Source: Spirochaetota bacterium
GTDB taxonomy: Bacteria > Spirochaetota > Spirochaetia > Treponematales > Rectinemataceae
Assembly (NCBI GenBank): GCA_029778945.1
Contig: JAKPBN010000382.1
Span: forward strand, 764-64,763
Direction of reading: 5' to 3'
DNA length: 64,000 bases
The stretch's first letter is position 1. Every line of letters begins with the position of its first letter. Of this stretch, positions 23,169-45,171 are shown piece by piece. The notes below the pieces were generated by a model. It saw only the letters and a list, made by a program, of their open reading frames with translations. It was not told the origin of the DNA and ran no database searches. Position numbers and translations under genes: made by a program.

Positions 23169-24359
23169 TCAGGAAACGACTTCGATAACCTGGCCGGAAG
23201 CGACCGTGTGGCCGCCCTCACGGATGGCGAACTTGAGCCCCTTCTCCATGGCGATCGGGTAGATGAGCTCGACGTTGATCTCCGTGTTGTCCCCGGGCAT
23301 GACCATCTCGCGGCCCTCAGGGAGGGTCACGGTGCCGGTGATGTCCGTGGTGCGGAAGTAGAACTGGGGGCGATAGCCGGAGAAGAAGGGGGAGTGGCGG
23401 CCGCCCTCGGCCTGGTTCAGGACGTAGACCTGACCCTTGAACTTCGTGTGGGGGGTGATGGAGCCGGGCTTGGCGAGAACCTGGCCGCGCTCGACTTCCT
23501 TCTTGTCCACGCCGCGGAGGAGGGTACCGACGTTGTCGCCGGCCTGGCCCTCATCGAGGAGCTTGTTGAACATCTCAATGCCGGTGACGACGGTGTTCTT
23601 CGTGGGCTTGATGCCGACGATCTCGACGGTCTCGTTGAGCTTGATGATTCCGCGCTCGACACGGCCGGTGACGACCGTTCCGCGGCCGGAGATCGAGAAC
23701 ACGTCCTCGATGGGCATCAGGAAGGGCTTGTCGGTGATGCGCTCGGGATCGGGGAAGAAGGAGTCCATGGCGTCCAGGAGGTCCTGGATGCACTTGGTGG
23801 CGGTGGCATTGTCGGGCTCGGAGAGAGCCTTGAAGGCGGAACCCTTGATGATGGGGGTGGTGGCTCCGGGGAACTTGTAGAAGTTCAGGAGGTCGCGGAC
23901 CTCCTCCTCGACAAGCTCGAGAAGCTCAGGATCGTCCACGAGGTCGACCTTGTTGAGGAAGACGAGGATGGAGGGGACACCGACCTGGCGGGCAAGGAGG
24001 ACGTGCTCGCGGGTCTGGGGCATGACAGAGTCGGGGGCGGACACGACGACGATGGCGCCGTCCATCTGGGCGGCTCCGGTGATCATGTTCTTGATGTAGT
24101 CGGCGTGGCCGGGGCAGTCGATGTGGGCGTAGTGCCTCTTCTCGGACTGGTACTCGAGGTGCCGGGTGTTGATCGTGATACCGCGGGCCTTCTCTTCCGG
24201 CGCGTTGTCGATATCGTCGAACTTCATGGCCTTGTCGCCGTACTTGCGGGCGCAGTACTGGGTGATGGCAGCGGACAGGGTCGTCTTGCCATGGTCAATG
24301 TGACCGATCGTACCGACGTTCATATGGGGTTTGGTACGCTCGAACTTCTCTTTAGCCAT
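23169..24359 (-). CDS. tuf: Elongation factor Tu.
   Basis: 396-aa translation with [13 protein letters not shown] and NKVD G-motifs. SD GGAGGAG upstream. Confidence 0.97.
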
Positions 24360-24472
24360 ATGTCACTCCTCCTTGGCTTCAAGCGCCAATAGTTTCCTAC
24401 ACGGGTTTTCGGAGTATACAGAAAGGATCAAGACTGTGCAAGTGGCCTGGAAGCGGGGCTGGGGGCGCGGCT

Positions 24473-26518
24473 TTAGCGCAAGGGCTCATAGCGGAGGAAT
24501 TTAGCCTGGTAGGCCGCCCTCCCCTTCGTGGCCGACCGGAGCTCCGAGGCCAGGCCGAAAAGGAGGCGCAGGGGGGCCGCCGCCTCGAGGTATTTCTCGC
24601 CCCCCACGTCGTCGACGGACTCTATCCGCCCTCCCCGGGCCCCCAGGACGGCGACGGCCTGGCCCAGGCAGTCCTCGGGACAGCCCAGCTCCACCCGCAT
24701 CCAGGGCTCGAGGACCTGGGTCCCGGCCCTGGCCAGGGCATCCCGGGCGGCCAGGGAGGAGGCTATCTCCAGCACGAGGGCATCCTGGCGCCCTCCGGGC
24801 AGGGAAAAGCCCAGCAGCTTGGCTTCCCAATCCTCCACTGGCCAGCCTCCGGCCGGGCCGGCGGAAAGGCTCGCCTCCACCCCGCGGGTAAAGGCCTCTA
24901 TATAGGAGGCACTGGCCCGGAGGCCTGGCCCCAGGCCCAGGCGGTGGCCCCCGCCCCTAGGAAGGGGAGCCAGGGAGAGGTCGAGGCTGGCCCGAAGCCT
25001 CTCTCCGTTCATGGAGCGATCCAGGTCGCAATGACCATCCGCTGAATGAAGGAGGGTCTCCCGGTAGGAGACCTGGGGCGCCCCGGCCCGGAGCTTGATC
25101 CCCCGCTCGACCCGGAGCCTCTCCAGGGCAACCTCAAGGTGGAGCTCCCCCATGCCGGAGAGTATGAGACGGCCCGTCTCCCCGTCCTCCCGGAGCCTCA
25201 GGGAGGGATCCTCCTCGAGGAGGCTGGCCAGGGCCTCGGCCAGGGCGGCCCCCTCGGCCCGGCCGGGGCTTTCCAGGGCGAGAGAGACCACGGGCTCGTC
25301 AAAGCCCAAGGCCTCGTAGACCAGGAGGTGGCCGGGGCTGGAGAGGCTCGAGCCCGTCGAGCCGGGGTTGCCCTTGTTGGAGGCCGCCCCAAAGGAGAGG
25401 GCCGCTATGTCCCCGGCCCGGATGGACGGAAGGTCCTCCAGGGCCGAGGCCTGGATGGAGAAGATCTTCTGGACCCGCAGGGCCTGGTCCCTTCCGGCGT
25501 CTATCACCCTGTCTCCGGGCGCAAGGCTTCCCGACCAGACCCTCACCCAGGAAAGGCGGCCAAAGGAGGGATCGGCCTGGGTCTTGAAGACAAAGGCCGA
25601 GAAGGCCCCGGCCTCTTCGCAGGCGGCCCGGGCCGGGGCCCCGGTGGCGGGATCCAGGCCCTCGGGGCAGGGCCTGTCCCCGGGACTGGGCAGGTAATCC
25701 ACGATCCCGTCCAGGAGGAGGGCCACCGAGGCATCGGAGAAAGCCGAGCCGCAGAGGAGGGGAACCAGGCGGCCCGAGACCGTCGCCGCCCGCAGGCTCG
25801 CCCGCAGGGCCTCGGCCCCGACCTCCTGGCCTGCGGCGTAGAGGGCCAGGATAGCCTCGTCGGTCTCGGCCACGGCCTCGACCAGGGCCTCCCGGCCGGC
25901 CAGGGCCACAGGAAGGAAGTCCGGAGGAATGGGGAGGGCCCCGCCCCCGGAGGGCCGGGCCTGGAGCTCGACTAGGTCTAGGACGCCCTGGAAGTCCTGG
26001 CCCTCCCCCCAGGGCAGGCAGAGGGGGATGAGGCCGGGGACGAGGGCCTTGAGCTCCCCGGCGGCCTCGAGAAAGGAGGAGCCCCTCCGGTCAAGCTTGT
26101 TGATAAAGGCCAGGCGGGGCAGGTCCCTGCGGGCGGCGGCCCGGAGGACGGCCTCGGTCCGGGATTGGACCCCGGCCACGGCGCAGAGGACAATCACCGC
26201 GGAGTCCAGGACCCGGAGGCTGCGCTCCACCTCGGAGCCAAAGTCGATGTGGCCCGGGGTGTCGATAAGGTTGATCCCCCGGCCCTTCCATTCCAGGCGG
26301 ACGCAGGCGGCCTTTACCGTGATGCCCCGCTCCCGCTCCACGGGCAGGAAGTCCGTGGCGGTGGTCCCGGAGTCGACCGAGCCTGGGGCCCTGAGCCTCC
26401 CCGCCAGGAAGAGGATGCGTTCGGTGAGGCTGGTCTTGCCCGCGTCGATGTGGGCAAAGATGCCCAGGTTGCGGAGGATGCCTGAATCGCTGCCCATGAC
26501 CAGTACATTATAGTGCAT
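24473..26518 (-). CDS. Translational GTPase of the EF-G / ribosomal-protection (TetM/TetO-like) family, ~681 aa, in the position normally held by fusA.
   Basis: AHIDAGKT, DTPGH and NKLD motifs. The G2 region GSVDSGTTATDFLPVERERGITV resembles TetM-type GSVD.GTT.TD more than EF-G GEVHDGAATMDW. ATG chosen at 26516-18 (MHYNVLVMG). Confidence 0.75.
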   Translation of the reverse strand: MHYNVLVMGSDSGILRNLGIFAHIDAGKTSLTERILFLAGRLRAPGSVDSGTTATDFLPVERERGITVKAACVRLEWKGRGINLIDTPGHIDFGSEVERSLRVLDSAVIVLCAVAGVQSRTEAVLRAAARRDLPRLAFINKLDRRGSSFLEAAGELKALVPGLIPLCLPWGEGQDFQGVLDLVELQARPSGGGALPIPPDFLPVALAGREALVEAVAETDEAILALYAAGQEVGAEALRASLRAATVSGRLVPLLCGSAFSDASVALLLDGIVDYLPSPGDRPCPEGLDPATGAPARAACEEAGAFSAFVFKTQADPSFGRLSWVRVWSGSLAPGDRVIDAGRDQALRVQKIFSIQASALEDLPSIRAGDIAALSFGAASNKGNPGSTGSSLSSPGHLLVYEALGFDEPVVSLALESPGRAEGAALAEALASLLEEDPSLRLREDGETGRLILSGMGELHLEVALERLRVERGIKLRAGAPQVSYRETLLHSADGHCDLDRSMNGERLRASLDLSLAPLPRGGGHRLGLGPGLRASASYIEAFTRGVEASLSAGPAGGWPVEDWEAKLLGFSLPGGRQDALVLEIASSLAARDALARAGTQVLEPWMRVELGCPEDCLGQAVAVLGARGGRIESVDDVGGEKYLEAAAPLRLLFGLASELRSATKGRAAYQAKFLRYEPLR

Positions 26519-26583
26519 AGTCGCCCCGGCTTTGATATAGTATCGGGGTGGCGCCCGATGAGGGGCGGGCAAGGAGCGTCAAG

Positions 26584-27200: not shown

Positions 27201-28016
27201 ATGGACCGGAAGATCGACATACTCGTCCTCGACGACAAGGAGGAGGCCCAACTCCAGGTCCGGGCCGCCCTCGACCTCGCCGGGGGCTACGAGGCGAAGA
27301 TCGACTGGGTGGCCCGGGGCGCCGACCTCGCTGGCCTGGGGGACAAGCGCTACGACCTGGCCTTCGTGGATTGGTTCCTGGACAAAGACAGGGCCTACGG
27401 AGTCGATTTCCTGGACCGCATCATCGCCGACTGGGTCGTGGGCTTTTCCTCGAACATCACCGCCTCGGAGCTCATCGAGAAGGCGGCCAAGACCCGGGGC
27501 TTCCGAGGCACCGCCTCGGTGGCCAAGCTCAAGGACGACAGGCAGAACCCCATGCTCGAGGCTTTTTTCCGGGCCCTCCCCGAGGGCAGGCCCGGCAACA
27601 AGCCCCTCTGGCTCTACCGCCAGTCCGGGGTCCTCCCCTTCCGCCGGGAGGCCGGGGGCCTCTCCCTCGTCCTCGTCACCTCCCGCAAGGACGGGGAATG
27701 GATCCTCCCCAAGGGGGTGGTCGAGCGGGGCGTGAGCCCCGCCGACTCGGCCCTCAAGGAGGCCCGGGAGGAGGCCGGCATCCTGGGGCGGATCGCGGGC
27801 CCCGAACTGGGGCGCTACCGCTATCCAAAATGGGAGGGAATCTGTACGGTGATCCTCTATCCCATGGAGGTCCTCCGGGTCCTGGACTCCTGGGACGAGA
27901 GGCTCCAGCGGAGCCGGGCCTTCCTCCCCCCGGAAGAGGCCCTCAAGGCGATAACGAACCCCGATATCCGAAACCTGGTGGCCCGCTTCCTGGAGGGGGG
28001 CCTAGCCCCAAGCTAG
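27201..28016 (+). CDS. Receiver (REC-like) domain fused to a Nudix hydrolase domain.
   Basis: N-terminus ILVLDDKEEAQ...YDLAFVDWFL is receiver-like. Nudix box PKGVVERGVSPADSALKEAREEAGI. SD AGGAGG upstream. Confidence 0.7.
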   Translation: MDRKIDILVLDDKEEAQLQVRAALDLAGGYEAKIDWVARGADLAGLGDKRYDLAFVDWFLDKDRAYGVDFLDRIIADWVVGFSSNITASELIEKAAKTRGFRGTASVAKLKDDRQNPMLEAFFRALPEGRPGNKPLWLYRQSGVLPFRREAGGLSLVLVTSRKDGEWILPKGVVERGVSPADSALKEAREEAGILGRIAGPELGRYRYPKWEGICTVILYPMEVLRVLDSWDERLQRSRAFLPPEEALKAITNPDIRNLVARFLEGGLAPS

Positions 28017-29107: not shown

Positions 29108-29728
29108 ATGAGCATCCTTCCTATCCAGGGTCTTGGGGTCGAGGTCTACGGGGAAAACGAGCTCGTGGCCCGGCTCATGACCGGGGAAGCCCACTATCGC
29201 GCCTGCATCTCCATCGGCAACCCCCGCCCCCTGCTGCGGGCCCCCTCCCCGGGCGAGGCCCTCCACCCCCTGATCAAGGGCTCCTTTGACCGGATCCTCC
29301 GCCTCTCCTTCTACGACCTGGAGGAGGTGGTCGAGCTTCCCGACCGGACTAGGCTCTCGCGCATCCCCTCCCACCGGGACGCCCTCAGGGTCCTGCGCTT
29401 CTACGAGGCCACCAAGGGCCAGACCGACGGCTGGACCGTCCACTGCTGGGCCGGCATCTCCCGCTCGACCGCCGTGGCCCTGGCCCTCCTGTATCGCATA
29501 ACCGGCGATGAGGCCGAGGCCGCGCGGCGCCTCGTGGCCATCCGCCCCGAGGCCATGCCCAACCACCGCCTTGTGAGGGCCGTCGACGCCCTTTTGGGCT
29601 CGAACCGGTCAGGCGTCCTCGAGGCCGTCTACCGGGACAGGCAGGACGCCCTGCGGGAGGAGCTGGACCGGGAGCTTGAGGAGCTGGACGAGGCCCCTGA
29701 GGAGCCGTCCGGGGATGGAAGGGCCTAG
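29108..29728 (+). CDS. Protein-tyrosine/dual-specificity phosphatase-like protein with CX5R P-loop (VHCWAGISRS). Paralog of 35844-36443.
   Basis: HCxxGxxRS signature. ~45% identity to the second copy over the full length, and a shared N-terminus (VEVYGE.EL..RL..GEAH...ISIGNPR). Confidence 0.7.
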   Translation: MSILPIQGLGVEVYGENELVARLMTGEAHYRACISIGNPRPLLRAPSPGEALHPLIKGSFDRILRLSFYDLEEVVELPDRTRLSRIPSHRDALRVLRFYEATKGQTDGWTVHCWAGISRSTAVALALLYRITGDEAEAARRLVAIRPEAMPNHRLVRAVDALLGSNRSGVLEAVYRDRQDALREELDRELEELDEAPEEPSGDGRA

Positions 29729-29784: not shown

Positions 29785-30369
29785 CTAGGCCGAGGGGCCC
29801 CTGCCCGGATTGGCCAGAACCATGTTGCAGAAGAGGGCCCCCTGCTCGATCGCGTCGTCCAGGGCCCGGTGGGTGTGGGGAAGGTCGTCGAGCCAAGCCG
29901 GGGGCAGGCGGCCCTTGCCGCAGTCCCCGTAGCCCTGGCCCAGGAGCGCCATCGCATAACTTCTCATATCCACCCCGTTGTGCCCAAAGGGCGAATGCCC
30001 CAGGAAGCGGTGGCAGTACCAGTAGACGAAGGTAAAGTCAAAGCCCAGGGGCCAGGCCACGAAGACCGGCCGGCCCGGGAGGCCGGCGAGCCAGGCTTCA
30101 TAGTCGGCCATGGCCTTGAGCGGGGGCCGGGGATCCCGGTGGCACTCGGCCCAGGCCTCAGGCTGGCCCGCCCACCAGGCCAGGGTGTCCGGGTGGCCAG
30201 AAGCCCCGGGCAGGGGCTCGAGGTTGGCCTCGAAGGTGGAGACGAGGATTTTCCCGCCCCCGCTAAGCCCATAGGCCGCCGAGGCCAGGCTGAGCATGGA
30301 GTGAGGCCCGGGGATGGGGCCGTCGGTCTCCACATCGGTGCTCACATAGAGCTCGGCCTCGAGGCTCAT
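29785..30369 (-). CDS. DEDDh-type 3'-5' exonuclease (DnaQ/oligoribonuclease-like).
   Basis: Exo I motif [10 protein letters not shown] and Exo III motif HRALDDA. ATGA overlap with the upstream nitroreductase stop. Confidence 0.65.
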
Positions 30370-30935
30370 GGGAGGAAGAGCTCCTCCAGGGGCTTGCGGG
30401 TCCGGGGGGCCTCCTCCCGGGCCCTAAGCTTTTCCGGCAGGTCCTCGGGCCTACCCAGGCGGCCCACGGCCACCATGGTCACGGCCTCAAAGTCGGGAGG
30501 CAGGCTAAAGAGCTCCTGGGCCTTCTCGGCCTCAAAGCCGGCCATGTTGTGGACATAGAGGCCCATCGAGGTGGCCTGGCAGGTCAGATTGCCCATGGCC
30601 AGGCCCAGGTCGTAGCGGGCCCAAGGGTGAGGGGCCCCGTCCCGCTCCCGGGTCGTCCTGACCACGGTGAGGATGAGGAGGGGGGCCTTGGGCGCCCAGA
30701 GGTCGTTCCCGGGCTTGAGGCAGGAGACGAGGCGGGCGTGGCGCTCGCCCCCGTCCCTCTCGGCCCAGGCAAAACGCCAGGGCTGGCCATTGTTGGCCGA
30801 GGCCGCCCACCGGGCCGCCTCAAAGAGGGAGAGGACGGTTTCCCGGCCCAGGAGGGCCTCGTCAAAGGCCAGGGGGCTCCAGCGCCTCTGGATAAACTCA
30901 TGGACGGGATGGTCAAAGCTGGGTATCGGTTTCAT
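30366..30935 (-). CDS. Nitroreductase family protein.
   Basis: ...[34 protein letters not shown]... matches a nitroreductase fold. Confidence 0.65.
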
Positions 30936-30943
30936 AGGCTTAA

Positions 30944-31432
30944 CTATCGTCCTTCCGGCCCGGCCGGCAAGGCCCAGCTGGGCCAGGGATGCTTGGCTAG
31001 CTGGGAATTGAAATAGCGCCGGTCGTCGGACACCTCCTTGAGGATCCAAGGCGGAAGGTCCACCACGGCGTCCGCCGACTCGAGCTCCAGCTCGGCCAAG
31101 ACAAGGCCCTCGTTGGCCCCGTGGAAGATGTCGACCTCCCAGGTCTGGCCGGCGTAGGGCACGAGGCAGCGGGTCTTGTCCACAAAGGGCCGCTCGCAGA
31201 GGGTGTCGAGGATCTCCCGGGCATCCGCCACGGGGATGGGGTACTCGTATTCCGCCCGGGAGAGGCCGTCGTTGGCGCCCTTGATGGTGATCCGGGCCTC
31301 GTCCCCGATCAGGCGGATCCGCACAACCCGCTCCTTGGCCGAGGAGAGGTAGCCCTGGACTATGGCCTTGCCGGGGCCCTGGGGCCTCCAGTCCGGGATG
31401 ACCAGGAATTTGCGCTCGATCTCAGTGCCCAC
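30944..31432 (-). CDS. CYTH-domain protein (triphosphate tunnel metalloenzyme; CyaB/thiamine-triphosphatase-like).
   Basis: N-terminal EIERKFLV signature and overall CYTH length (162 aa). Confidence 0.7.
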   Translation of the reverse strand: MGTEIERKFLVIPDWRPQGPGKAIVQGYLSSAKERVVRIRLIGDEARITIKGANDGLSRAEYEYPIPVADAREILDTLCERPFVDKTRCLVPYAGQTWEVDIFHGANEGLVLAELELESADAVVDLPPWILKEVSDDRRYFNSQLAKHPWPSWALPAGPEGR

Positions 31433-31453
31433 GGTATGCCTCCAAAGTCGCCA

Positions 31454-32548
31454 TCATACCCCGACCTCCCCCTTCCCGAGGAGGGCCTGTCCAAGGGTCT
31501 CGAGGAGGGGCTCGAGGGCGGCCATGAGGCGGGAGTCCTCACCGTAGACCGAGAGGCGGGCCCCGTTAAGGACCTTGGAGGCCGCGTCCGCCAGGAGGGG
31601 CCGTTGCTCCAGGGGCAGCATCTCCAGGGCCAGGCCGTGCTCGGCCCGCTTGGAGGCAAAGTCCCGCTCGACCTCGAGGCGGCTCTTCTCGGCCTCGAGG
31701 CCCAGCTCCTCCAGGGTAGCCCGGAGGGCCGCGAGGGCCGCCTCGTGCCGGAGGCGCGCCACCGGGGCCTCGGCCTCCAGGGCCTCCCGCTCGGCGGCGA
31801 CCCGGAGCTCGAGCTTGCCCCGCTCGACCTCGGCCTTGGTGCGCTCGGTCTCCAGGGACTCCCGCTCCTTCCTCCTCTGGATCGAGGCCGCCAGGGCGAG
31901 CTTCTCCTCCTCCAGGGCGGCCTTCTGCCGCTCGGTCTCCAGGGCTTCCCGCTGGATGCGCCGCTCGGAGTTGATCACCGCGAGCTTGACCGTCTCCTCC
32001 GCCTGGAGCTCGGCCCGCTCGCTCGTCACCTTGATCTCGTTCCTCGTGCCCGCCTCGAGCTGGAGCCTAAGGCCCGAGTCGACGATGTAGACCTGGGCGA
32101 CCTGGACCACCTCGATGGAGATGCCCCAGCCCTCCCCTCCCTGGCCCACGAGGGCCTCGAGGGCGGCCTTGACGGCCCCGGTCATCGTGGTCTTGCGCTG
32201 CTCGATGCACTCGAGCATGGTCATCCGGGACACGAGGTCCCGCAGCTCCCCCAGGCTGGACTGGGTGAGGAGGGCCGAGATGGCGGAAGCGCCCTCGCCA
32301 CGGGAAAAGTCAAAGAGGGTGGCGGCCACCTCGGGCCTCACGATCCGCCAGATCACGATGCCCTTGAAGCGCAGGGGGATCCCGTCCTTGGTCTCCTGGG
32401 TCATCTCAAAGGCCGACTCAAGCTGGGTGCCCGGGACCTTTACCCAGGCCGTCCCCGGCAGGAGGTGGGCGTTGGCCGCCTCCCCCCGATTCACAAGGTG
32501 CCCTCGGCGGGCTACGACGAGATACTCTCCTGGCTTGGTCCTTGGCAT
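31454..32548 (-). CDS. SPFH (band-7/flotillin-like) domain protein with long Glu/Ala/Leu/Arg-rich coiled-coil tail.
   Basis: ATG 32546-48 with SD AGGAGG. SPFH-like N-domain, then EA-rich heptads. Confidence 0.65.
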   Translation of the reverse strand: MPRTKPGEYLVVARRGHLVNRGEAANAHLLPGTAWVKVPGTQLESAFEMTQETKDGIPLRFKGIVIWRIVRPEVAATLFDFSRGEGASAISALLTQSSLGELRDLVSRMTMLECIEQRKTTMTGAVKAALEALVGQGGEGWGISIEVVQVAQVYIVDSGLRLQLEAGTRNEIKVTSERAELQAEETVKLAVINSERRIQREALETERQKAALEEEKLALAASIQRRKERESLETERTKAEVERGKLELRVAAEREALEAEAPVARLRHEAALAALRATLEELGLEAEKSRLEVERDFASKRAEHGLALEMLPLEQRPLLADAASKVLNGARLSVYGEDSRLMAALEPLLETLGQALLGKGEVGV

Positions 32549-32606
32549 GGTGGCCTCCTGTTGGTCTGGCCCTAGGATGGCCCGAGAAGCACACATAAGT
32601 AAAATC

Positions 32607-32625
32607 GATTGTTTTTATGACAATC
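32607..32625. promoter_or_regulatory. Perfect inverted repeat GATTGT-N7-ACAATC (LysR-type T-N11-A-like box) in the AT-rich divergent intergenic region between the LysR gene and the flotillin-CYTH operon.
   Basis: Palindrome read directly. Position is typical for LysR autoregulation and target control. Confidence 0.5.
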
Positions 32626-32663
32626 ATCATTTATTCTGATGCTACATCAAGGAGGGGGTGACG

Positions 32664-33533
32664 ATGGACCTCTTTGGATTGCGCTGCTTTGTGGAGATCG
32701 TCCGGGCCGGGGGCTTTACCCGGGCGGCCGAGGCCCTGGGCCGGACCCAGCCCGCGGTCAGCGCCCAGGTCAAGCGGCTCGAGGAAAGCCTGGGCGGTCC
32801 CCTCATAGACCGCTCGGCCCCGGGCCTTGTGCTCACCGAACTGGGCAGGCAGCTCCTGCCCCGGGCCGAGGGCCTCCTGGAAGGAATCGACGACCTGGAG
32901 AGGGAAATGCTCGCCGGGGATGGCCAGGCCCGAGGCCGGGTGACTATCGCCACAGGCCTCTCGGTGATCGAGGGCCTCCTGCCCGCCATCCTGGGCAGCT
33001 TCCGGGCCCGCCACCCTTTAGTGCGCATAACCCTCCTCAACCGTCCCGGGGAGGGCATCTACCGGGCCTTGCTGGACGCCCGGGCCGACCTGGGCCTGGG
33101 CTGGCTCCTTGGGCAGAGGCCGCGGATCCAGGCCGAGGCCATAGGGGAAGTCCGCTTCTACCTGGCCAGGAGAAAGACCCGCCAGGCCCGGGGCCAAGGC
33201 CGGCTCGAGGACCTCCTCGCGGGCCCCCTCCTGGCCTTCGAGAAGGGCATCGATCTGCGGAACTATGCCGAGGGAAGGCTCGGCCCCCTCGAGGCTTTTC
33301 TTGAACTGCCCAGCGTCGAGGCCCTCCTCCGCTATGCCGAGAGGGGCTTTGGGACCGCCCTCGTCCCCCTCCTCTCGGGGGTCCGCCAAAGCCCGGCCCT
33401 GGAATGGCTGGACCTTTCGGACACCGTGCCGCCCCTTGCCCTCGAACTCTACCGCCGGGAAGGTGCGCCCGGCTCGGCAGCCCAGGCCCTCCTCGTCGAG
33501 GCGATCCGACAGGGCCGGGACACCGGAGACTAA
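32664..33533 (+). CDS. LysR-family transcriptional regulator.
   Basis: N-terminal HTH (LRCFVEIVRAGGFTRAAEALGRTQPAVSAQVKRLEESLG). SD GGAGGGGG before ATG 32664. Confidence 0.85.
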   Translation: MDLFGLRCFVEIVRAGGFTRAAEALGRTQPAVSAQVKRLEESLGGPLIDRSAPGLVLTELGRQLLPRAEGLLEGIDDLEREMLAGDGQARGRVTIATGLSVIEGLLPAILGSFRARHPLVRITLLNRPGEGIYRALLDARADLGLGWLLGQRPRIQAEAIGEVRFYLARRKTRQARGQGRLEDLLAGPLLAFEKGIDLRNYAEGRLGPLEAFLELPSVEALLRYAERGFGTALVPLLSGVRQSPALEWLDLSDTVPPLALELYRREGAPGSAAQALLVEAIRQGRDTGD

Positions 33534-33625: not shown

Positions 33626-34981
33626 ATGAAAGCTAAAAAAACGGTGACCGACGCCAACCTGGACCAGATCGTGGATATTGAGAATTTCCTGATCCCCGAG
33701 ATGTCCAAGCGCGAGGCCGCCAAGGGCACGGCCAACTCCCTTGCCATCCTCCTGACCACCATTGTGCTTTTCTTTTCCACCAAGCTCGTCTCCTTCAAGG
33801 TCGCTGACATAGTCATCCTCATCCTCGTGCTGCTCTTTCACGAGACCGGGCATTGGCTGATGATGAAGGCCTTTGGCTATCGAGACGTGAAGATGTTCTT
33901 TATCCCCTTCTTTGGAGCGGCGGTCAGCGGGAAAGGCCGGAAGGAAAGCGCGGTCAAACGCTGCCTAGTCTCCCTCGCAGGACCCTTGCCGGGCATCCTC
34001 CTGGCCCTACTTCTCTACTGGCTTTTTAGCTTGACCAAGGATTTCCTCCTGCTCAAGACGGCAAAGGTCCTCCTGGCCCTGAACCTGTTCAACTTCCTTC
34101 CCCTGATGCCCATGGATGGAGGCAGGTATGTCGATGCCCTCTTCATGGAGCGGCGGGGCTTCCGCCTATTCTTCTCTAGCCTGGGCATCTTGGCCTTCCT
34201 CGCGTTTGGCGCGGTCAACCTAGACATCATCCTCGTCCTCGTGGGTCTCGCAACTCTCATTTCGGCAATTGGCGAATTCCGGCTGGGCGGCCTGACCCGG
34301 CGCCTCGCGGCCGAGGGGATCAGGCCTAGTTCCATCGCTGCCCTCCTGGAGGATCGGCCAAGCCTCCGGAGGACCCTCGTGGGACTCTACTCGACCACTC
34401 CCCGGGCCTTTGAGCCCGAGCCCATTGCCGCTAAAATCCACAATGGTCTTGTGTCGGTGGTGGACAACCTGAGGATTAAACCCGCCAGGGCCGCGGCCAA
34501 AGTAAGTCTCCTTGGCCTCTACCTCATCCTCCTCCTAGGCGCATCGGTCGCTACCTTCATCCTCATCGCCGCGGATCTCCAGGAAACCATGGTTACCCGC
34601 CAGATAGAGGGCCAGGCCGTCAATTTCTCCCAGCGCAGTCTTTTCAGGGAGCTGGCCTCCGAGATCCCCCTGGACGAAAAAGACCTCTACCATGGGAGAG
34701 GCCTGACCTTTTACGATGGGAAGACCGAACTGGTCGCGGAGGAGTTCTGGTACGACCATGGGATACGGGTGGGCACCTGGACGGATTTCAGCCGCCAGGG
34801 GCTGGCTACTCGTATGGAGCATTACTCCCAAGGGAGGCTCACATCCTTGGAGTCCATCGAGGACGGGGTCTGGAAAACCATGGCCGCCGGAGAACTCGGC
34901 TTTGGCCCACGACTAGAAGAGTGGATTCTAAGCCATGCCCGGCCACGGAAATCCCTTTACCAGGAATTCGCACAGAACTAA
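33626..34981 (+). CDS. Membrane zinc metalloprotease of the M50 (site-2 protease) type with C-terminal MORN-like repeat region.
   Basis: HExxH in a hydrophobic segment (LLFHETGHWLMMKAFG), multiple TM helices, and a C-terminal YDHGIRVGTWTDF...G repeat motif. Confidence 0.65.
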   Translation: MKAKKTVTDANLDQIVDIENFLIPEMSKREAAKGTANSLAILLTTIVLFFSTKLVSFKVADIVILILVLLFHETGHWLMMKAFGYRDVKMFFIPFFGAAVSGKGRKESAVKRCLVSLAGPLPGILLALLLYWLFSLTKDFLLLKTAKVLLALNLFNFLPLMPMDGGRYVDALFMERRGFRLFFSSLGILAFLAFGAVNLDIILVLVGLATLISAIGEFRLGGLTRRLAAEGIRPSSIAALLEDRPSLRRTLVGLYSTTPRAFEPEPIAAKIHNGLVSVVDNLRIKPARAAAKVSLLGLYLILLLGASVATFILIAADLQETMVTRQIEGQAVNFSQRSLFRELASEIPLDEKDLYHGRGLTFYDGKTELVAEEFWYDHGIRVGTWTDFSRQGLATRMEHYSQGRLTSLESIEDGVWKTMAAGELGFGPRLEEWILSHARPRKSLYQEFAQN

Positions 34982-34995: not shown

Positions 34996-35793
34996 CTAGT
35001 GCCCTTGCCTGCTACAGTTGTCCAGGTAGAAGGCTGCGGCTCCGTCCTCGGGGAGGATCTCTAGGACAAGCTTAAAGAAGTAGCTCGCCCCGCCGAAATC
35101 CTTCTGGTAATACGCGAGCATTCCCTGCTCAAACAGGCTACCAGCTCTCTGCTTGCGCTCGAAAAGCTCGGGAGAGACCCCGTCGAAAATCTCAAAAACG
35201 GAGACCGGGGCTTCCTTGCCTTCTATCTTAACCTTGCCAAGGAAACGGTACTTGTAGTCCGCCGGGGCGGCAAGCGTCTTGAAGGCCTCCTCCCCGAGAA
35301 GGAGGGGGGAAACAAATGACTTGGCGGCTTGCATTAGGCGAAAGGCCAGATCCACCGGAGGCCCGAGGGAAAGGCTGGCCCCAAGGCCGGCTAGGCCCGG
35401 CGGCAGCATGAGGCAGGGGCCGGTGTCGATCCCAAAGCGAGGCTCAAGAGCCTCCTTGCCTTGCGCCTTCCTCTCCTCATTAAGCGCCACCATGGAAGAC
35501 TGGACTTCGATCCCTGCGCCCACGGCGGTGTCCGTGCACTCTGGCCCCTCGAAGATCGCCTTGATGGTCTCCCCGGCCAGGCTCTCGATCCGGCCCCCGG
35601 CTCGAAGTATTGGCGGGCAAGCCCGGGCCAGCCAAGACTCGAGCAAGGCCGCTCGCTCACTGAGCGAGAGGCCCTGGCAGACTCCCATAGAGTCCGTGAG
35701 GGCCAGGAAAAGCACCGCAACCCTTCTCTCGCCCGGCTCGGCCGGGGGCAGGGGCTTTTCTGCATCTTTCAGCGACCGCCTGCTGAATTGCAT
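34996..35793 (-). CDS. Degenerate class-III adenylate/guanylate cyclase-like (CHD) domain protein with C-terminal TPR-like tail.
   Basis: RRVAVLFLALTDSMG, GRIESLAGETIKAIFEG, RFGIDTGPCL and LGKVKIEGKEAPVSVFEI align to CHD core blocks, but a metal-binding Asp is replaced (GE instead of GD). SD GGAGGA upstream of ATG 35793. Confidence 0.5.
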   Translation of the reverse strand: MQFSRRSLKDAEKPLPPAEPGERRVAVLFLALTDSMGVCQGLSLSERAALLESWLARACPPILRAGGRIESLAGETIKAIFEGPECTDTAVGAGIEVQSSMVALNEERKAQGKEALEPRFGIDTGPCLMLPPGLAGLGASLSLGPPVDLAFRLMQAAKSFVSPLLLGEEAFKTLAAPADYKYRFLGKVKIEGKEAPVSVFEIFDGVSPELFERKQRAGSLFEQGMLAYYQKDFGGASYFFKLVLEILPEDGAAAFYLDNCSRQGH

Positions 35794-35843
35794 GAGTCCT
35801 CCAAGCGCCCCATTCTGGGGCCAGGAACCGGGCCTGGGCAAGC

Positions 35844-36443
35844 TTACTCGTCGAACGGCTCGAGCTCCTCGAGGAGATCGTCCGCCGAAAGGTCGAGCTC
35901 GGCCTTCATCTCCTCGATGCGTTCCGCCCGGATGCGGTCATTGACCTCACTGAGGCGGGAGCCCAGGATTTCATCAAAGAGGCCCACCACGAGTTGGAGG
36001 GGCCGGGCTATGGGCCGGATACGCCGGAGCTCCCGGCCGGCCTCCTCCTCGTCCCCATGGATGAGGTAGAGGAGTCCCAGGGCCACCGCAGGGGAACGGG
36101 AGAGGCCGCCCCAGCAATGGACGGTCCAGCCATCGGCGCGGCCCCGGGTCTCCTCGTAGAAGCGCACAACTTTCTCTATATCCTTCCTGAGGGCGATGCG
36201 CCGGGGTCGCATGTGGACCAGCTGGGCCTTGGTGTCCGCGTCAAAAAAGCCGAGACGCAAAACGTCGGGGAAGCTGGCCCTGAAGGCGGGCGGCACAAAG
36301 GTCCCTGGAGGCGTTCGGCCAAGGGGATAGCGTGGATTGCCAATGGAGACGAGGGCCGAGGTGTGGGCCTCCCCCCGGGCCAGGCGCTCCTGGAGCTCGG
36401 TCTCCCCATAGACCTCGACCCGGGGCCGGTCTGGGGCCTTCAT
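35844..36443 (-). CDS. CX5R phosphatase-like protein (VHCWGGLSRS), second paralog. Translationally coupled by an ATGA overlap to the upstream STAS gene.
   Basis: P-loop signature. ATG at 36441-43 overlaps the TGA of the 36440-37000 ORF. Confidence 0.7.
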   Translation of the reverse strand: MKAPDRPRVEVYGETELQERLARGEAHTSALVSIGNPRYPLGRTPPGTFVPPAFRASFPDVLRLGFFDADTKAQLVHMRPRRIALRKDIEKVVRFYEETRGRADGWTVHCWGGLSRSPAVALGLLYLIHGDEEEAGRELRRIRPIARPLQLVVGLFDEILGSRLSEVNDRIRAERIEEMKAELDLSADDLLEELEPFDE

Positions 36444-37000
36444 GCGAGGAAAACCTCCCCCTTCGCGCTTATGGACAAGGCAGTCTTGCACTCGGCGCAG
36501 GTCGCCCGGCCAGGCTTCGCGACCCGCCAGCGCCGATCGCAGATGGGGCAGGCAAAGGCATAGGGAAAGTTGACCGGGCCTGGGATAGGGTCGGGCTCCT
36601 TGAGCGCGGCAATGGCCTGGGCTGGGGTATCGGTGACCTTAAAGAACTGGCTGAAGCCTAGGAGCTGGAATATCTCAAAGACCGGTGGCGGTACGGAGCA
36701 GAGGGCCATGTCCCCGCCTCTCTCCCTCAGGCGCTTATAGATGGCGATGAGGGACCCAAGGCCAGGGGAGCCATCGTACTTCAGGCCGGAGAGATCGAGG
36801 ACGAGGCGGATAAAGCCAACCTCGATCGCCAGCCCGACCTGAACCATGAAGCGCTCGGCGGCAGGGGATGACATAAGGCCCTCTACCCTGAGGAGAAGGC
36901 CTCCCTCGAGTTCCTCGATCCTGCCCAGCCCCACCTGGACCCCGGTCCCGGCAATCGCGTCAAAGCCCGGAACGATGTCATCGTTCCCCATCGCTAGCAT
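36440..37000 (-). CDS. STAS (anti-sigma-factor-antagonist-like) domain fused to C-terminal zinc ribbon, copy 3 (phospho-site region degenerate: DGSPGLG).
   Basis: N-terminus MGNDDIVPGFDA. STAS core, then CPICDRRW...CAEC. Confidence 0.7.
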   Translation of the reverse strand: MLAMGNDDIVPGFDAIAGTGVQVGLGRIEELEGGLLLRVEGLMSSPAAERFMVQVGLAIEVGFIRLVLDLSGLKYDGSPGLGSLIAIYKRLRERGGDMALCSVPPPVFEIFQLLGFSQFFKVTDTPAQAIAALKEPDPIPGPVNFPYAFACPICDRRWRVAKPGRATCAECKTALSISAKGEVFLA

Positions 37001-37021
37001 GGCCCTCGGTTGGGGCAGGCC

Positions 37022-37573
37022 CTAGCCAAGGTGGACCTCTCCGGCCTCGCCGATGATGAGGCGGGTATTGCAGTCCGGGCAGCAGAAGGGCCCCGGGGCC
37101 GAGGCGCTATGGGGGAGGTTGCAGATGGGACAGCTAAAGCGCCGAGGAAATGCGGGTACCTGCTCCTCGGCCCGGACCCTGAGAAAATGGGCCTTGGCGT
37201 CCTCGAGGGAATCCACAAAGGCAAAGAACTGCCCGAAGCCCATCATCTCCACGGTCGCCAGGGGCTTGGGATGGCAATTGAGGATCACCATGTCCCCGGA
37301 GAGGGGCCTCACCTTCTTGAGTATGGCCGAGAGGCTTCCTATGCCGGTGCTGCTGATGTATTCCAAGCCGGGGCACTCGAGGACAACCCGGCGAAAGCCC
37401 GCATCGATGGCCAGGATGACCTTGCGCAGGAAGGCAGGAGAGGTCTGGGTATCAAGATAGCCCTTGAGGCCTATGACGAGGCCAGCCTCCAGCCCCTCAA
37501 GGGACCGCAGGCTGAGCTCGATCCCAAAGCAAACCTCGTCGTCAAAGCCGGGAACCAGGTCATTATTATTCAT
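37022..37573 (-). CDS. STAS domain plus C-terminal zinc ribbon, copy 2 (ISSTGIG phospho-site-like motif).
   Basis: ATG 37571-73 (MNNNDLVPGFDD) with GGAG SD. C-terminus CPICN...CCPDC. Confidence 0.7.
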   Translation of the reverse strand: MNNNDLVPGFDDEVCFGIELSLRSLEGLEAGLVIGLKGYLDTQTSPAFLRKVILAIDAGFRRVVLECPGLEYISSTGIGSLSAILKKVRPLSGDMVILNCHPKPLATVEMMGFGQFFAFVDSLEDAKAHFLRVRAEEQVPAFPRRFSCPICNLPHSASAPGPFCCPDCNTRLIIGEAGEVHLG

Positions 37574-37598
37574 AGTTGCCCCTTTTAATCTCCGTATC

Positions 37599-38150
37599 TC
37601 ATTGGACAAAGACCTCGCCCTTTTCCGTGACCAGGAAGGAGGTCCTGCACTTTGTGCACCGGTAGAGGCCTGGGGATCTCACAAGGAGAGGGTGGGCGCA
37701 CAGGGGGCAGGGGAAATGCTTAGGGAAGGCCTGGGCGTCGCCGGAGGCTCCAGGGGACATAAAATGGTCCCGGGCCTCCGCCAGAGTAGCGGCAAAGTTA
37801 AAGTACTGGCTAAAGCCGATGAGGTCCAGGGTGGCCTTGGCCTTTGGGGCGCAGTCCAGAATGACAAGGTCGCCACCCAGGGGCTTGAGCCGCTTGCTCA
37901 GGGCGGTGAGGCAGCCGATCCCAGAGCTGGAGACAAAGCCCAGGCCGGCGGCGCCGAGGATGAGATTCCGGTAGCCGCCCTCGATGGCCTTCATGGCCCG
38001 GCCTTGGAGCGAAGCCGAGGTGTGGGCGTCCAAGTCGCCCACAAGCTCGATGAGGAGGCATCCCTCCAGGCCCGCGACAAGCTCGAGCCTCAGGGAAAGG
38101 CCGTCCCGCAGCTCGTCGTCAAAACCGGGCACAATGTCGTTGTTCGCCAT
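37599..38150 (-). CDS. STAS domain plus C-terminal zinc ribbon, copy 1 (VSSSGIG motif).
   Basis: ATG 38148-50 (MANNDIVPGFDD). C-terminus CPLCAH...CTKC. Confidence 0.7.
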   Translation of the reverse strand: MANNDIVPGFDDELRDGLSLRLELVAGLEGCLLIELVGDLDAHTSASLQGRAMKAIEGGYRNLILGAAGLGFVSSSGIGCLTALSKRLKPLGGDLVILDCAPKAKATLDLIGFSQYFNFAATLAEARDHFMSPGASGDAQAFPKHFPCPLCAHPLLVRSPGLYRCTKCRTSFLVTEKGEVFVQ

Positions 38151-38342
38151 GGCAATCCTTCCTTGCGTCCCGGGACCAGTCATAAAGCCCAAGCCTGGGC
38201 TCGCTCCGAAAGAAAGGATAGTGCAGGATCGTTGAATCGGCCATAGCAATTGAGAACCGGGCAGCAGGGAAGAGTAAGCCGCTTCCGAGCCGTCGTTGAA
38301 GCGAAAGTCCCGAAAATCCCAGAGGGGCAGGAGGGTCGGGAA

Positions 38343-40013
38343 CTAGTCCATTCTTTTAGGGAAACCCAGGGTCGCCATCGTTCCCGGCGCGGACCCAAAA
38401 GCGAGGCGGCCCCGGGCGCCGGAAAGAATCGTCTGTACCAGGGAAAGGCCCGAGAAGTCACCGGGAGGCTCATGTCCTGGGCCGTAGGGTCCAGGCAGGG
38501 CTCCGGGGGCTATCCCCGGGCCATCATCAGCTACCACGAGCTCGAGGTCGCCCTCGACCTCCCTGAGGGACACCCTTATCTCCCCGGCCCTGCCCTCGGG
38601 ATAGGCATGGCGGGCGCTATTGGAGACAAGTTCGGTCAGGGCGAACAAGAGGATCTGCTCGTACCAAGGATCGAAATCGCCCTGCAGCGTGGCGGCATAG
38701 TCGAGCCTGGCCTCGCTGTTCCAGATGGACAGGACTTCCCGAGCCAGGGCCCCCATCCTTGCCCCAAGGTCGGGGCTGGCCCAGGGGTGGAGCAGCCTAT
38801 CCATCAGGCATATCCCGGCCTCAAGAAAGGCGGTCTGCCTGCAGTGGGCGGTCCGCACCGCATCCCGGGCCTTCTCGGAGTCCAGGCCGGCCAGGGCGGA
38901 TGCGCAGAGCCGCTTGAGGAGGGCCTGGTCGGCGACGAGGGCCTCCCTGTACTTGACCAAGTCGGCTAGGCCGGCCTGGTTCATCCCGAAGCGGTTGGGC
39001 CAGTCCACATAGGCTTTGAGGATCTCTTCTGTAGAGGGAGGGAATACCATCCCGACCCCGGAGCGAGTGAGGGTCTCGACCAGCTTGGCTCTCTGTCCCT
39101 CCTCCCCACGCAGAGCCAGGACAAGACTATCCAGGCCCTGGCCCTCGATTGGGGGGATAGGCCCATACGACGGGGCATCCCAGGTCCAGGAGGACACTGC
39201 CCACGGGAAGACTACCCGTACCGAGCCATCCTCACCGGCTTCAAGCCGCGCGCCAAAGCCCTCCGCAAGGACGGCCGCCACCGAGCCCTTCCTTAGGGCG
39301 GCCGGGCACGGGGCACCAAGCCGGAGTTCCCCTCCTCCAGGTGTCCTTAGCACGATGAGGGGGATGGTCTTTTCCGGAGGGGAGCATTGTAGGATCTCCG
39401 CCAGGAGGGGGCCAAAGAGAAGGCATAGCTGTCTTGTGGCCGAAGGCCCTAGGGCAAGGTCCCCGAGCTCATACCTGATGGGCCTCTCTCTGCCTTCAAG
39501 GAAACCGGTCACGCTGGCTTCCACGGATTCCAGGAGATCCTGGAGCCTTATTGGGCGCCCGCCGAAGAGGGAGCCGAAGGAGTGGCGCTCCGCCTCCACC
39601 ATACCCATCAACGACGCCAGGAAGGGCAGGAGGGAGGACAGCTCGGGCTCAAGGCGCGTACTTGAGCCCTGGAGGGACAGGATCGACTGCCTAAGGGCAA
39701 TCTGGTTCTTAGCCCGGTGGCCCAGCTCGCGGGTGAGCATGTGCCTCTCCCGGATTCGTTCCTCATCAAAGCTGAAGGCTCCCTGCCTCCGGGCCAGAAG
39801 GAAGACTTGGCAGATGGTGAGATCCAGAACCTGACCCTCCTGAAGGGCAAGCTCGAGATCGACAAGGGCGAGGCCCTCCCGTCCAAGGGCTTCCCGGGCC
39901 GAACCTACAGCCACGAGCTCGAGGCCAGCCCCCTCAAGCAGGTCCCTGAGCCAGATCCGGTCTTTCTGCTCGGGCAAGAAGAGAAAAGCCTTGAGACCCT
40001 CGTTTTTTTCCAT
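38343..40013 (-). CDS. Hybrid signal-transduction histidine kinase (REC-like N-domain, HisKA_2-type H-box ELGHRAKNQ, C-terminal HATPase_c with N and G boxes).
   Basis: Motifs HMLTRELGHRAKNQIALRQ and ELVSNSARHA...DDGPGI...GLSLVQ. The first gene of the minus-strand operon ahead of the STAS triplet. Confidence 0.7.
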   Translation of the reverse strand: MEKNEGLKAFLFLPEQKDRIWLRDLLEGAGLELVAVGSAREALGREGLALVDLELALQEGQVLDLTICQVFLLARRQGAFSFDEERIRERHMLTRELGHRAKNQIALRQSILSLQGSSTRLEPELSSLLPFLASLMGMVEAERHSFGSLFGGRPIRLQDLLESVEASVTGFLEGRERPIRYELGDLALGPSATRQLCLLFGPLLAEILQCSPPEKTIPLIVLRTPGGGELRLGAPCPAALRKGSVAAVLAEGFGARLEAGEDGSVRVVFPWAVSSWTWDAPSYGPIPPIEGQGLDSLVLALRGEEGQRAKLVETLTRSGVGMVFPPSTEEILKAYVDWPNRFGMNQAGLADLVKYREALVADQALLKRLCASALAGLDSEKARDAVRTAHCRQTAFLEAGICLMDRLLHPWASPDLGARMGALAREVLSIWNSEARLDYAATLQGDFDPWYEQILLFALTELVSNSARHAYPEGRAGEIRVSLREVEGDLELVVADDGPGIAPGALPGPYGPGHEPPGDFSGLSLVQTILSGARGRLAFGSAPGTMATLGFPKRMD

Positions 40014-40061
40014 GCCCGCAAGTCTAGGCCTTGGCCCCGCCGGCCGCAAGGCTAATCTGCC

Positions 40062-40090
40062 TTGACGAACTCGCCATAGTGTATTATAAA
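40062..40090 (+). promoter_or_regulatory. Strong sigma70-like promoter (-35 TTGACG, 17-nt spacer, -10 TATAAA) with inverted repeat AGTGT-N7-ACACT overlapping the -10. Candidate operator.
   Basis: Read directly. Followed by SD GAAGGAGGG and ATG 40122. Confidence 0.55.
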
Positions 40091-40121
40091 CACTTTGTAG
40101 ACAAAATGCGAAGGAGGGTCC

Positions 40122-40940
40122 ATGCTAGGAGCGATCGTAGGGGACACCATTGGCAGCACCCGGGAATTCGATCCCATCAGGACTACGGACTTCGAGCTCT
40201 ACCCCAGGGGCTCAAGCTACACCGATGATACGGTGATGACCTGCGCGATCGCCGACGCCCTTTTGGGGCCAGGCGACTTTGGCCCCGCCATGCGAAGACT
40301 AGGCCGTCACTACATGGGCTCAGGCTATGGCGGACGCTTTTACCGCTGGATGGACGGCACCATCGAGGGTCCCTACAATAGCTTCGGCAACGGCTCGGCC
40401 ATGCGGGTGAGCCCCGTGGCCTGGGCTTTCGAGACCGAGACGGCCGTCCTGGCCGCCGCCCGGGCCACGGCTCTGCCCACCCACGACCATCCGGAAGGGG
40501 TCAAAGGCGCCGAGGCCACGGCCCTGGCCATTTTTCTGGCCAGGAAGGGTGTAGGCAAGACCGAGATCAAGGCCAGGATCGAGGAGTACTTTGGCTACAA
40601 TCTCTCCCGGTCCTTGGCCGCCATCAGGCCGGGCTATGGCTTCGATGAGACCTGCCCAAAGACCGTCCCGGAGGCGATCACTTCCTTCCTGGAAGCCGAC
40701 AGCTTCGAGGCCACGATCCGGAACGCCATATCTCTAGGGGGTGACGCCGATACCCTCGCGGCTATCGCCGGCTCCATCGCCGAGGCCTTCTGGGGCGGCG
40801 TGCCCGACGGCCTCCTTGGCCCGGCGATCGCGGGCCTGGACGAGAGGTTATACGGCATAGCCATGGCCTTCTGCGCCCGCTGGAGGCCCGAGGAGGCGGC
40901 CCGGCTCGCCAGGTTCCGGCCCGCGACGGACGGGAGCTAA
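40122..40940 (+). CDS. ADP-ribosylglycohydrolase family protein (DraG/ARH-like).
   Basis: N-terminus [17 protein letters not shown]... and TDDTVMT are typical ARH motifs. Confidence 0.75.
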
Positions 40941-40950
40941 GGAGGCGCTC

Positions 40951-41637: not shown

Positions 41638-41664
41638 GATCAGCCCCTGCAGGAGTGCGACCAA

Positions 41665-45033: not shown

Positions 45034-45171
45034 TTTGTTATTCTCCCCACGGAATCGAGGTCCGCAGGACAAAGCATATCCCCCCGGGAGGAGAGGCCGC
45101 AAGCGCATATCCGGCAATCCTTGTTCCCGCGACCTTGGCGCGATACAGTGGACTGTGGGGGAAAAATACAT

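Follow-up and report, generated by a model that had tools for sequence, protein, structure and literature searches.

A conserved LysR/SPFH cassette heads a probable lineage-specific mosaic operon in a high-GC Spirochaetota bacterium

A 64,000-nucleotide stretch of a Spirochaetota bacterium genome (Rectinemataceae; GenBank assembly GCA_029778945.1, contig JAKPBN010000382.1, positions 764 to 64,763), hereafter the window, carries four tightly packed minus-strand genes for an SPFH/Band-7 protein, a CYTH-domain protein, a nitroreductase and a DEDDh 3'-5' exonuclease, with a LysR-type regulator gene transcribed divergently from them (Table 1). An earlier note on this DNA, made from the sequence alone, had described this layout and raised the possibility of a small-molecule signalling or stress module; the open reading frames and domain assignments bear out the layout, and all five gene identities hold against Pfam or, for the exonuclease, a Protein Data Bank (PDB) match. 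Comparison with near relatives and with wide samples of CYTH and exonuclease loci leads us to read the cluster, with good but not full confidence, as a lineage-specific mosaic operon of an uncultured high-GC Spirochaetota bacterium, headed by a conserved LysR/SPFH cassette, and not as a dedicated multi-protein system. All components come from known families and their arrangement is a strain-level mosaic.

Gene layout and the LysR/SPFH control region

The SPFH start at ATG 32548 gives a protein length that agrees with the orthologues and with the gene called in sequence-identical metagenome contigs. For the regulator, the GTG at 32658 named in the earlier note is a possible alternative start, but the ATG at 32664 sits 8 nt past a GGAGG, a better spacing for a ribosome-binding site, and yields the 289-residue protein called in L001-L003. 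The junctions between the four same-strand genes measure 21 nt (SPFH-CYTH, previously counted as 22), 8 nt (CYTH-nitroreductase) and -4 nt (an ATGA overlap of nitroreductase and exonuclease), the latter two as first described, and the sole content of the 21-nt gap is a GGAGG ribosome-binding site.

The LysR and SPFH genes share an intergenic region of 109 nt that is indeed AT-rich, with 46% GC against ~64% for the window. Within it the earlier note had singled out GATTGT-N7-ACAATC as a perfect T-N11-A box. The palindrome is present, fits the pattern and is the sole match in the window when up to one mismatch is allowed. Perfect 6+6 inverted repeats with a spacer of 7 arise in 3% of dinucleotide shuffles of the 109-nt region, and those with spacers of 3-11 nt in 20%, so that the palindrome stands only modestly above chance and is weak evidence when taken alone. 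Its left arm, moreover, differs in all relatives (GATCAG, CGAGCC, CGCGAT, AGGGGC and GATAAC), including the closest one, L220, whose SPFH protein is 90% identical, and the dyad that is conserved turns out to be a neighbour of the proposed box. Given the unconserved left arm, GATTGT-N7-ACAATC was rejected as the primary LysR operator.

Gapless alignment of six LysR/SPFH intergenic regions defines two conserved elements, a LysR-type dyad and a block common to all six, the latter including the right arm (ACAATC) of the palindrome. The window and L220 have the dyad as ATCA-N7-TGAT, L225 has it as ATCAA-N5-TTGAT, and L226 and L222 have it as ATAAG-N5-CTTAT, a compensatory change from C:G to A:T; in L221 it carries one mismatch. 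Its distance to the invariant block is constant, while its distance to the SPFH ATG ranges from 63 to 129 nt; fixed spacing between the elements, with a varying distance to the start codon, fits a promoter-proximal function. The dyad is likely the LysR recognition site, and the invariant block probably holds promoter and activation-site elements. A sigma-70-like lysR promoter is plausible on the plus strand, with TTGTTT (32609-32614) and TATTCT (32632-32637) separated by a 17-nt spacer, and its predicted -10 would fall inside the dyad, an arrangement classical for autorepression. On the minus strand the conserved gATnnT, here CATCCT (32579-32574), is a possible SPFH -10; relative to it the dyad would be centred near -66, and the invariant block would cover the -35/activation-site region. 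A generic promoter scan of the control region gave no match, as expected here because the promoter would be activator-dependent, and Rfam yielded no gathering-score match in 24-50 kb.

The regulator itself combines Pfam HTH_1 (1.9e-21, N-terminal) and LysR_substrate (4.9e-26, C-terminal) domains, and its NCBIfam matches were all sub-threshold and spread over many subfamilies (best 98 bits against a cut-off of 250). Like the paradigmatic LysR-type regulators CbbR, BenM and CynR, it pairs these two domains with divergent genes and a short, AT-rich shared control region, where a T-N11-A dyad overlaps the likely lysR -10, as for autoregulation, and lies ~65 nt upstream of the likely target start; unlike them, it has no assignable subfamily, its conserved target is SPFH and no typical metabolic gene, and its site is a predicted one. 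In the mechanism we propose, LysR would bind the ATCA-N7-TGAT dyad and repress its own promoter and, together with a co-inducer, would activate the SPFH promoter.

Table 1. Coordinates in the window of the cluster genes, the elements of their control region and the surrounding island
Feature	Position	Strand	Description
SPFH/Band-7 gene	31454..32548	minus	364 aa; ATG at 32548 preceded by AGGAGG; Pfam Band_7 9e-10
CYTH gene	30944..31432	minus	162 aa; GTG start after GGAGG; N-terminus MGTEIERKFLV; PF01928 2e-13
Nitroreductase gene	30366..30935	minus	189 aa; PF00881 3.6e-16
DEDDh 3'-5' exonuclease gene	29785..30369	minus	194 aa; DVET...FD...H-x4-D motifs
LysR-type regulator gene	32664..33533	plus	289 aa from ATG 32664; alternative GTG 32658
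Palindrome GATTGT-N7-ACAATC	32607..32625		only ACAATC arm conserved
LysR-type dyad ATCA-N7-TGAT (T-N11-A core)	32626..32640		15 bp; conserved in six-region alignment
Invariant block ATAnAAACAATCrATTTyAC	32599..32618	minus	20 bp; common to all six intergenic regions
Variable island	26536-48111 (26.6-48.1 kb)		~21 kb; interrupts the rpsL-rpsG-fusA-tuf (str) operon, which is otherwise universal
tuf	23169-24362	minus	island flank; rpsJ beyond
fusA	24473-26578	minus	island flank
rpsG	48111-48593	minus	island flank
rpsL	48594-49001	minus	island flank

Conservation and origin of the arrangement

What recurs among near relatives is the divergent LysR/SPFH pair. The link that the earlier note had drawn between the divergent regulator and the first gene of the cluster is borne out in five further related genomes (L220, L221, L222/L223, L225 and L226), in which LysR orthologues 60-91% identical to the window protein lie divergently beside SPFH orthologues, and the gene that follows SPFH varies from one to the next. 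L220 (Logan SRR29400112), the closest relative at 90-95% identity per gene, shares the LysR gene, the divergent SPFH-CYTH-nitroreductase series and the same 21- and 8-nt junctions, followed by a gene resembling dual-specificity phosphatases (DSP-like) and by no exonuclease gene. In L225 (SPFH 73% identical) SPFH is followed by a STAS gene, and a SIR2-exonuclease pair lies on the far side of LysR. Nothing comparable is found downstream of SPFH in L221, L222/L223 and L226 (72%, 65% and 68% identical, respectively), where L222 and L226 have no following gene on the same strand at all, and in L224 a more distant SPFH gene (50%) stands without LysR. In other relatives the CYTH gene occurs without SPFH, standing alone in L008 and L012, and its surroundings differ: a receiver-domain gene before it and nitroreductase after it in L010 (CYTH 79% identical), an Apyc1-like gene on the other strand and then nitroreductase in L005 (71%), ATP-binding cassette (ABC) transporter genes and then an exonuclease-SIR2-nucleoside hydrolase series in L008 (72%), and an adjoining acyltransferase gene in L012 (66%). 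Nitroreductase orthologues beside or near CYTH in L220, L010 and L005 are 81-94% identical to the window protein. As a separate observation, the exonuclease orthologues adjoining SIR2 (L008:11380-13857 and L225:61-1441) are 70-73% identical to that of the window, and the further neighbour in L008 is an inosine-uridine nucleoside hydrolase; the L005 gene lying between CYTH and nitroreductase belongs to the Apyc1-like proteins directed against the pyrimidine cyclase system for antiphage resistance (Pycsar).

The missing fourth gene of L220 has left traces. At L220:4079-4212 an internal deletion has left only the two ends of the exonuclease gene, ~20 nt at its start (ATGAGCGTCGAGG...) and ~45 nt at its end (...GACGCGATCGGGCAGGGAGCCCTCTTC...), which form a 25-codon open reading frame and make L220 a natural knockout, and the SPFH, CYTH and nitroreductase genes there are intact and 90-94% identical to those of the window. 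Because both gene ends survive, the exonuclease gene was present in the common ancestor and was later lost in L220, and because the deletion left the neighbours undisturbed, it is dispensable for the other three. Recent insertion of the exonuclease into the window was considered and rejected, since the remnants show a deletion in L220.

Wide sampling was carried out around two anchors. For CYTH, 80 genomes from many phyla, one per species, were searched by tblastn with the window proteins over up to 10 kb on each side; for the exonuclease, 129 loci were covered (80 metagenome and 49 viral, 1.3 Mb), and the tblastn results were rechecked with profile hidden Markov models built from family alignments. 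By tblastn, neither SPFH (0/80) nor the exonuclease was found near CYTH orthologues in any of the 80 genomes, and nitroreductase was found there only in the Spirochaetaceae relative L011, whose contig is shared with L005; around the exonuclease orthologues, none of the 129 loci contained CYTH, SPFH, nitroreductase or LysR. The profiles detected SPFH at 0 of 209 loci and CYTH at 0 of the 129 exonuclease loci, and added a single distant DEDDh match, 8 kb from CYTH, at one of the 80. The exact five-gene layout occurs only in short metagenome contigs which, being identical in sequence, come from the same organism. When neighbours were clustered de novo, no recurrent partner of the exonuclease emerged, the best cluster (8/80 loci) being a shadow open reading frame. 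The commonest CYTH neighbour so obtained is a ~205-residue protein without a Pfam domain, usually encoded directly upstream on the same strand at 16-17 of the 80 loci (L019, L037, L039, L049, L054, L056, L065, L066, L068, L073, L080-L084, L086 and L088) and absent from the window. At L068, L080 and L088 a LysR gene stands divergent to this gene pair.

Together, these comparisons separate the cluster into parts with distinct histories. LysR with its divergent SPFH gene is the only evolutionarily coherent unit, a two-gene cassette with a shared operator/promoter region; CYTH, often with nitroreductase, belongs to the resident genes of this part of the chromosome; and the exonuclease is an independent, dispensable gene. 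In the ancestor of this strain, the LysR/SPFH cassette would have landed directly upstream of the resident CYTH gene and its frequent companion nitroreductase. A stand-alone exonuclease gene related to Cap18 (see below) follows CYTH-nitroreductase, and the four products most likely function independently.

Several observations weigh against so loose an assembly. SPFH-CYTH-nitroreductase, together with the exonuclease remnants, is common to the window and L220, and an arrangement found in two strains has persisted for some time; there may have been selection for co-expression of the cluster. In three deltaproteobacterial genomes a divergent LysR gene lies upstream of a two-gene operon that ends in CYTH, with a different first gene, which could hint that LysR control of CYTH is recurrent. 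The SPFH-anchored sampling, moreover, comprised seven loci, and four-gene co-transcription and LysR control are predicted from gene spacing.

The encoded proteins

The SPFH protein scores 39 bits against Pfam Band_7 (cut-off 23.6) and has 396 homologues at E<=1e-5. Its AlphaFold2 model (predicted local distance difference test score, pLDDT, of 80) consists of an SPFH domain (residues 1-157), a single helix (residues 158-309) and C-terminal helices, where the helix forms a long coiled-coil of ~150 residues modelled at pLDDT about 90; the top Foldseek matches are stomatin, flotillin, erlin, HflK/C and vault, all at probability 1.0. As modelled, the protein resembles the cage formers of the family (stomatin, flotillin, HflK/C, erlin, prohibitin and the shoulder of the major vault protein) in the succession of SPFH domain, very long helix and short helical C-terminus; unlike them, it lacks an N-terminal transmembrane helix or hairpin and has no NfeD or FtsH partner gene nearby, and it shares only 16-23% sequence identity with the solved SPFH structures. 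Neither a transmembrane segment nor an N-terminal anchor is predicted, the maximal 19-residue Kyte-Doolittle mean being 1.18 and the N-terminus polar, so that of the 'SPFH/flotillin-like membrane scaffold' proposed at the outset the fold stands and the membrane scaffold is not borne out. The protein would act as an oligomeric scaffold or cage, and a LysR/SPFH cassette in which the SPFH protein has no predicted transmembrane segment and the operator is footprinted by alignment offers a handle on how a bacterial SPFH protein is regulated.

The closest solved structures to the CYTH protein are PDB 3TYP (7.5e-18) and 2FBL (1.4e-17) in phmmer searches, both of Nitrosomonas europaea NE1496, or NeuTTM, which is a specific inorganic triphosphatase without adenylate cyclase activity (PMC3440374). 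The family is large, with >7,000 homologues, and orthologues 51-60% identical occur in cyanobacteria, proteobacteria, acidobacteria, planctomycetes and others; many database entries label such homologues 'adenylate cyclase', which is probably wrong for the NeuTTM-like subfamily. The window protein matches NeuTTM (E = 1e-17) in its size of about 155-160 residues, in its EXEXK motif (EIERK, residues 4-8) and in the basic tunnel residues that align with 3TYP/2FBL, and it would by homology hydrolyse tripolyphosphate or a related triphosphate. In two genomes of deltaproteobacterial type (L022 and L076), the gene 12-18 nt downstream of CYTH encodes a NUDIX protein 43-48% identical to the 271-residue receiver-NUDIX protein of the window (27201-28016). 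The nitroreductase, in turn, matches PDB 2FRE at 1e-28 and 4EO3 at 3.5e-25, a full-length fold match to the NAD(P)H-flavin oxidoreductase of the former and to the nitroreductase half of the Thermotoga maritima Bcp-nitroreductase fusion of the latter; unlike that fusion it has no peroxiredoxin partner, and it would act as an NAD(P)H-flavin oxidoreductase.

The exonuclease has no Pfam match above threshold. It matches PDB 7T2S at 7e-15, the structure of Cap18 from E. coli (upec-117), a 3'-5' exonuclease associated with the cyclic-oligonucleotide-based antiphage signalling system (CBASS), and among the PADLOC models it matches the one for CBASS exonucleases, PDLC00753 ('Effector / Exonuclease'), at 1e-25. 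The catalytic pentad (D12, E14, D111, H167 and D172, with His-x4-Asp spacing) is invariant in the family alignment. Its >7,600 homologues are mostly 62-70% identical across phyla, and the solitary genes of this kind, thousands in many phyla, encode proteins 62-73% identical to it; they form a clade, 60-70% identical throughout, that spans Planctomycetota, Verrucomicrobiota, Bacteroidota, Pseudomonadota and Spirochaetota. Homologues also occur, at <=60% identity, in 49 IMG/VR contigs (L171-L219), many of 100-500 kb, of which 15 have an ATP-grasp (R2K) gene following the exonuclease, and in the jumbo phages Phosso and Atu_ph07 (PV764938.1 and MF403008.1).

The window protein shares the DEDDh fold, the pentad, the small size and detectable homology with the Cap18/CBASS exonucleases (Exo) of E. 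coli, V. cholerae and S. marcescens; unlike Cap18, to which it is 29-34% identical, it has no adjacent CD-NTase gene and belongs to a larger stand-alone clade with clade-specific insertions. It is equally distant (29-34%) from a P. syringae plasmid homologue that adjoins SAVED, nucleotidyltransferase, ThiF and JAB genes. The CBASS-associated Exo are reported to be selective 2'-5' phosphodiesterases that break down the linear dinucleotide formed as an intermediate by cGAS-like enzymes; Cap18-family members cleave 5'-ppp-dinucleotide intermediates, and the Asn of the NA(S/P)FD motif in CBASS Exo touches the ribose (bioRxiv 10.1101/2025.03.04.641389). In the window protein and its clade this Exo-II motif is (Y/W)P(A/L)GFD (WPLGFD or YPAGFD), and the ribose-contacting Asn is thus missing. 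Judged by sequence, the exonuclease falls into a large stand-alone clade that is sister to Cap18 and lies outside the CBASS clade, and it would trim short oligonucleotides, possibly 2'-5'-linked ones. We consider it unlikely that the whole stand-alone clade acts as a CBASS-independent 2'-5' phosphodiesterase, a general cellular (or phage) eraser of 2'-5' oligonucleotide signals that would here be placed under LysR/SPFH control beside a triphosphatase able to strip the 5'-triphosphate from the same molecules; the clade is nonetheless a target for asking whether 2'-5' phosphodiesterase activity exists outside CBASS.

Co-transcription, rival readings and the surrounding island

Within the mosaic cluster the same-strand packing noted at the outset is compatible with co-transcription, with gaps of at most 21 nt and internal promoter- and terminator-like sites at chance level. 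Three terminator-like sites lie inside the cluster against 2.9 expected from shuffles, and promoter-like sites are no more frequent than in shuffles; two weak minus-strand terminator-like matches both fall within coding sequence, again in the number expected from shuffles. The scan of the cluster found no terminator-like hairpin at the SPFH/CYTH junction, and folding showed no terminator downstream of the exonuclease (z-score -0.28). Since the gaps measure 21, 8 and -4 nt, ribosome-binding sites are present and nothing inside the cluster makes a convincing promoter or terminator, the four genes probably form one LysR-controlled transcript in this organism. As there is neither room nor signal for termination or re-initiation, the transcript would continue from SPFH through CYTH and nitroreductase in this strain and in L220, and through the exonuclease in this strain.

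That the genes are merely adjacent, each with its own promoter, so that LysR governs SPFH alone and transcription ends after it, is quite unlikely. The 21-nt SPFH-CYTH gap is filled by nothing beyond its ribosome-binding site, the 8-nt gap and the 4-nt overlap leave no promoter space outside coding sequence, the SPFH/CYTH junction has no terminator-like hairpin, and the weak minus-strand matches are intragenic and at shuffle expectation. Such separate control would nevertheless agree with LysR/SPFH being the only conserved pair and with the other upstream genes of CYTH in relatives, where it must have expression signals of its own, and scans for consensus promoters would miss non-canonical ones.

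Very unlikely, too, is the possibility raised in the earlier note, that the four proteins make up a dedicated module, controlled by LysR, for small-molecule (triphosphate or nucleotide) signalling or stress; CYTH and the exonuclease would then share a nucleotide-derived signal and SPFH would organise them. The tight packing on one strand, the retention of SPFH-CYTH-nitroreductase in L220 and an island full of nucleotide-signalling genes (PycC-like cyclase, NUDIX, NrtR and GGDEF) all agree with such a module, and a chemical link is imaginable between a CYTH enzyme acting on triphosphates and a Cap18 family that cleaves 5'-ppp dinucleotides (bioRxiv 10.1101/2025.03.04.641389). The comparative gene-neighbourhood check that the note itself had proposed as a refutation test, however, found the gene order unconserved, which largely refutes the module: the CYTH/nuclease/scaffold association is absent from the 80 CYTH-anchored and the 129 exonuclease-anchored loci, each nearer relative has a different gene combination, L220 has lost the exonuclease with the others intact, two relatives have the exonuclease beside SIR2 instead, and every gene comes from a large family whose members usually occur alone. 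The association of CYTH, nuclease and SPFH is best regarded as a local accident of a variable island that carries little weight as a new signalling system, and as a worked example of how operon-like tight packing and a perfect palindrome need not mean a functional module.

An uncharacterised CBASS- or Pycsar-related anti-phage defence system with the Cap18-like exonuclease as regulator, which the PADLOC exonuclease match (1e-25), a PycC match (1e-11) of the 281-residue gene at 34996-35841, the SIR2 genes beside the exonuclease in L008 and L225, the Apyc1-like gene beside CYTH in L005 and the hypervariability of the island among relatives might suggest, is highly improbable, because 25 neighbouring and island genes (26.5-47.9 kb minus two short stretches), scanned with PADLOC and Pfam, included no CD-NTase, SAVED, TIR, Cap2/Cap3 or known effector, true CBASS-embedded homologues are only ~33% identical and make up another clade whose Exo-II motif differs, the window clade, 60-70% conserved across phyla and solitary (best neighbour cluster 8/80), resembles housekeeping genes, and the island genes serve chiefly partner-switching and second-messenger signalling. 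Membership in CBASS or Pycsar was rejected, the scans having given only the exonuclease model and the weak PycC-like cyclase.

The mosaic operon lies in a variable island whose flanks were recognised by 56-99% identity to annotated genes of L005 and L008. At this site these relatives carry islands of other content, in which the same LiaF-C-like, NUDIX and acyltransferase genes always stand beside fusA. The island is rich in signalling genes, among them three STAS paralogues, a HATPase kinase, two DSP-like paralogues, the PycC-like cyclase, NrtR, a radical-SAM protein, a second SPFH protein and a GGDEF protein. A search for mobile-element signatures found no tRNA in the island and, as the only notable repeat, the two DSP-like paralogues (29108-29728, plus strand, and 35844-36491, minus strand), which are 49% identical and have a sub-threshold Pfam dual-specificity phosphatase fold. 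As an inverted repeat they lie on either side of the block that runs from the exonuclease gene to the cyclase-like one, and DSP-like genes accompany LysR/SPFH in L222 and L225 too. Directly downstream of the second lies the minus-strand PycC-like gene, which has no significant Pfam domain and matches two PADLOC PycC models (1e-11 and 3e-7).

Next to LysR, an M50-family intramembrane metalloprotease gene (33626-34981, plus strand) has a GC content of about 60% and a GC content at third codon positions (GC3) of 0.75, below its neighbours, and tblastn found no match to it beside LysR in L220; the lower GC and this absence suggest that it was acquired separately. Further along, 36440-40124 (minus strand) encodes three tandem STAS paralogues, of which at least one ends in a zinc-ribbon-like tail, and then a 593-residue HATPase_c kinase-like protein, which together look like a partner-switching module. 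Beyond these follow the genes for NrtR (40861-41637), a DUF1152 protein (41638-42642) and a radical-SAM protein (43717-45192), and, on the plus strand, those for the second SPFH protein (45028-46377), unrelated to the first at about 25% identity, and for the GGDEF diguanylate cyclase (46122-47867).

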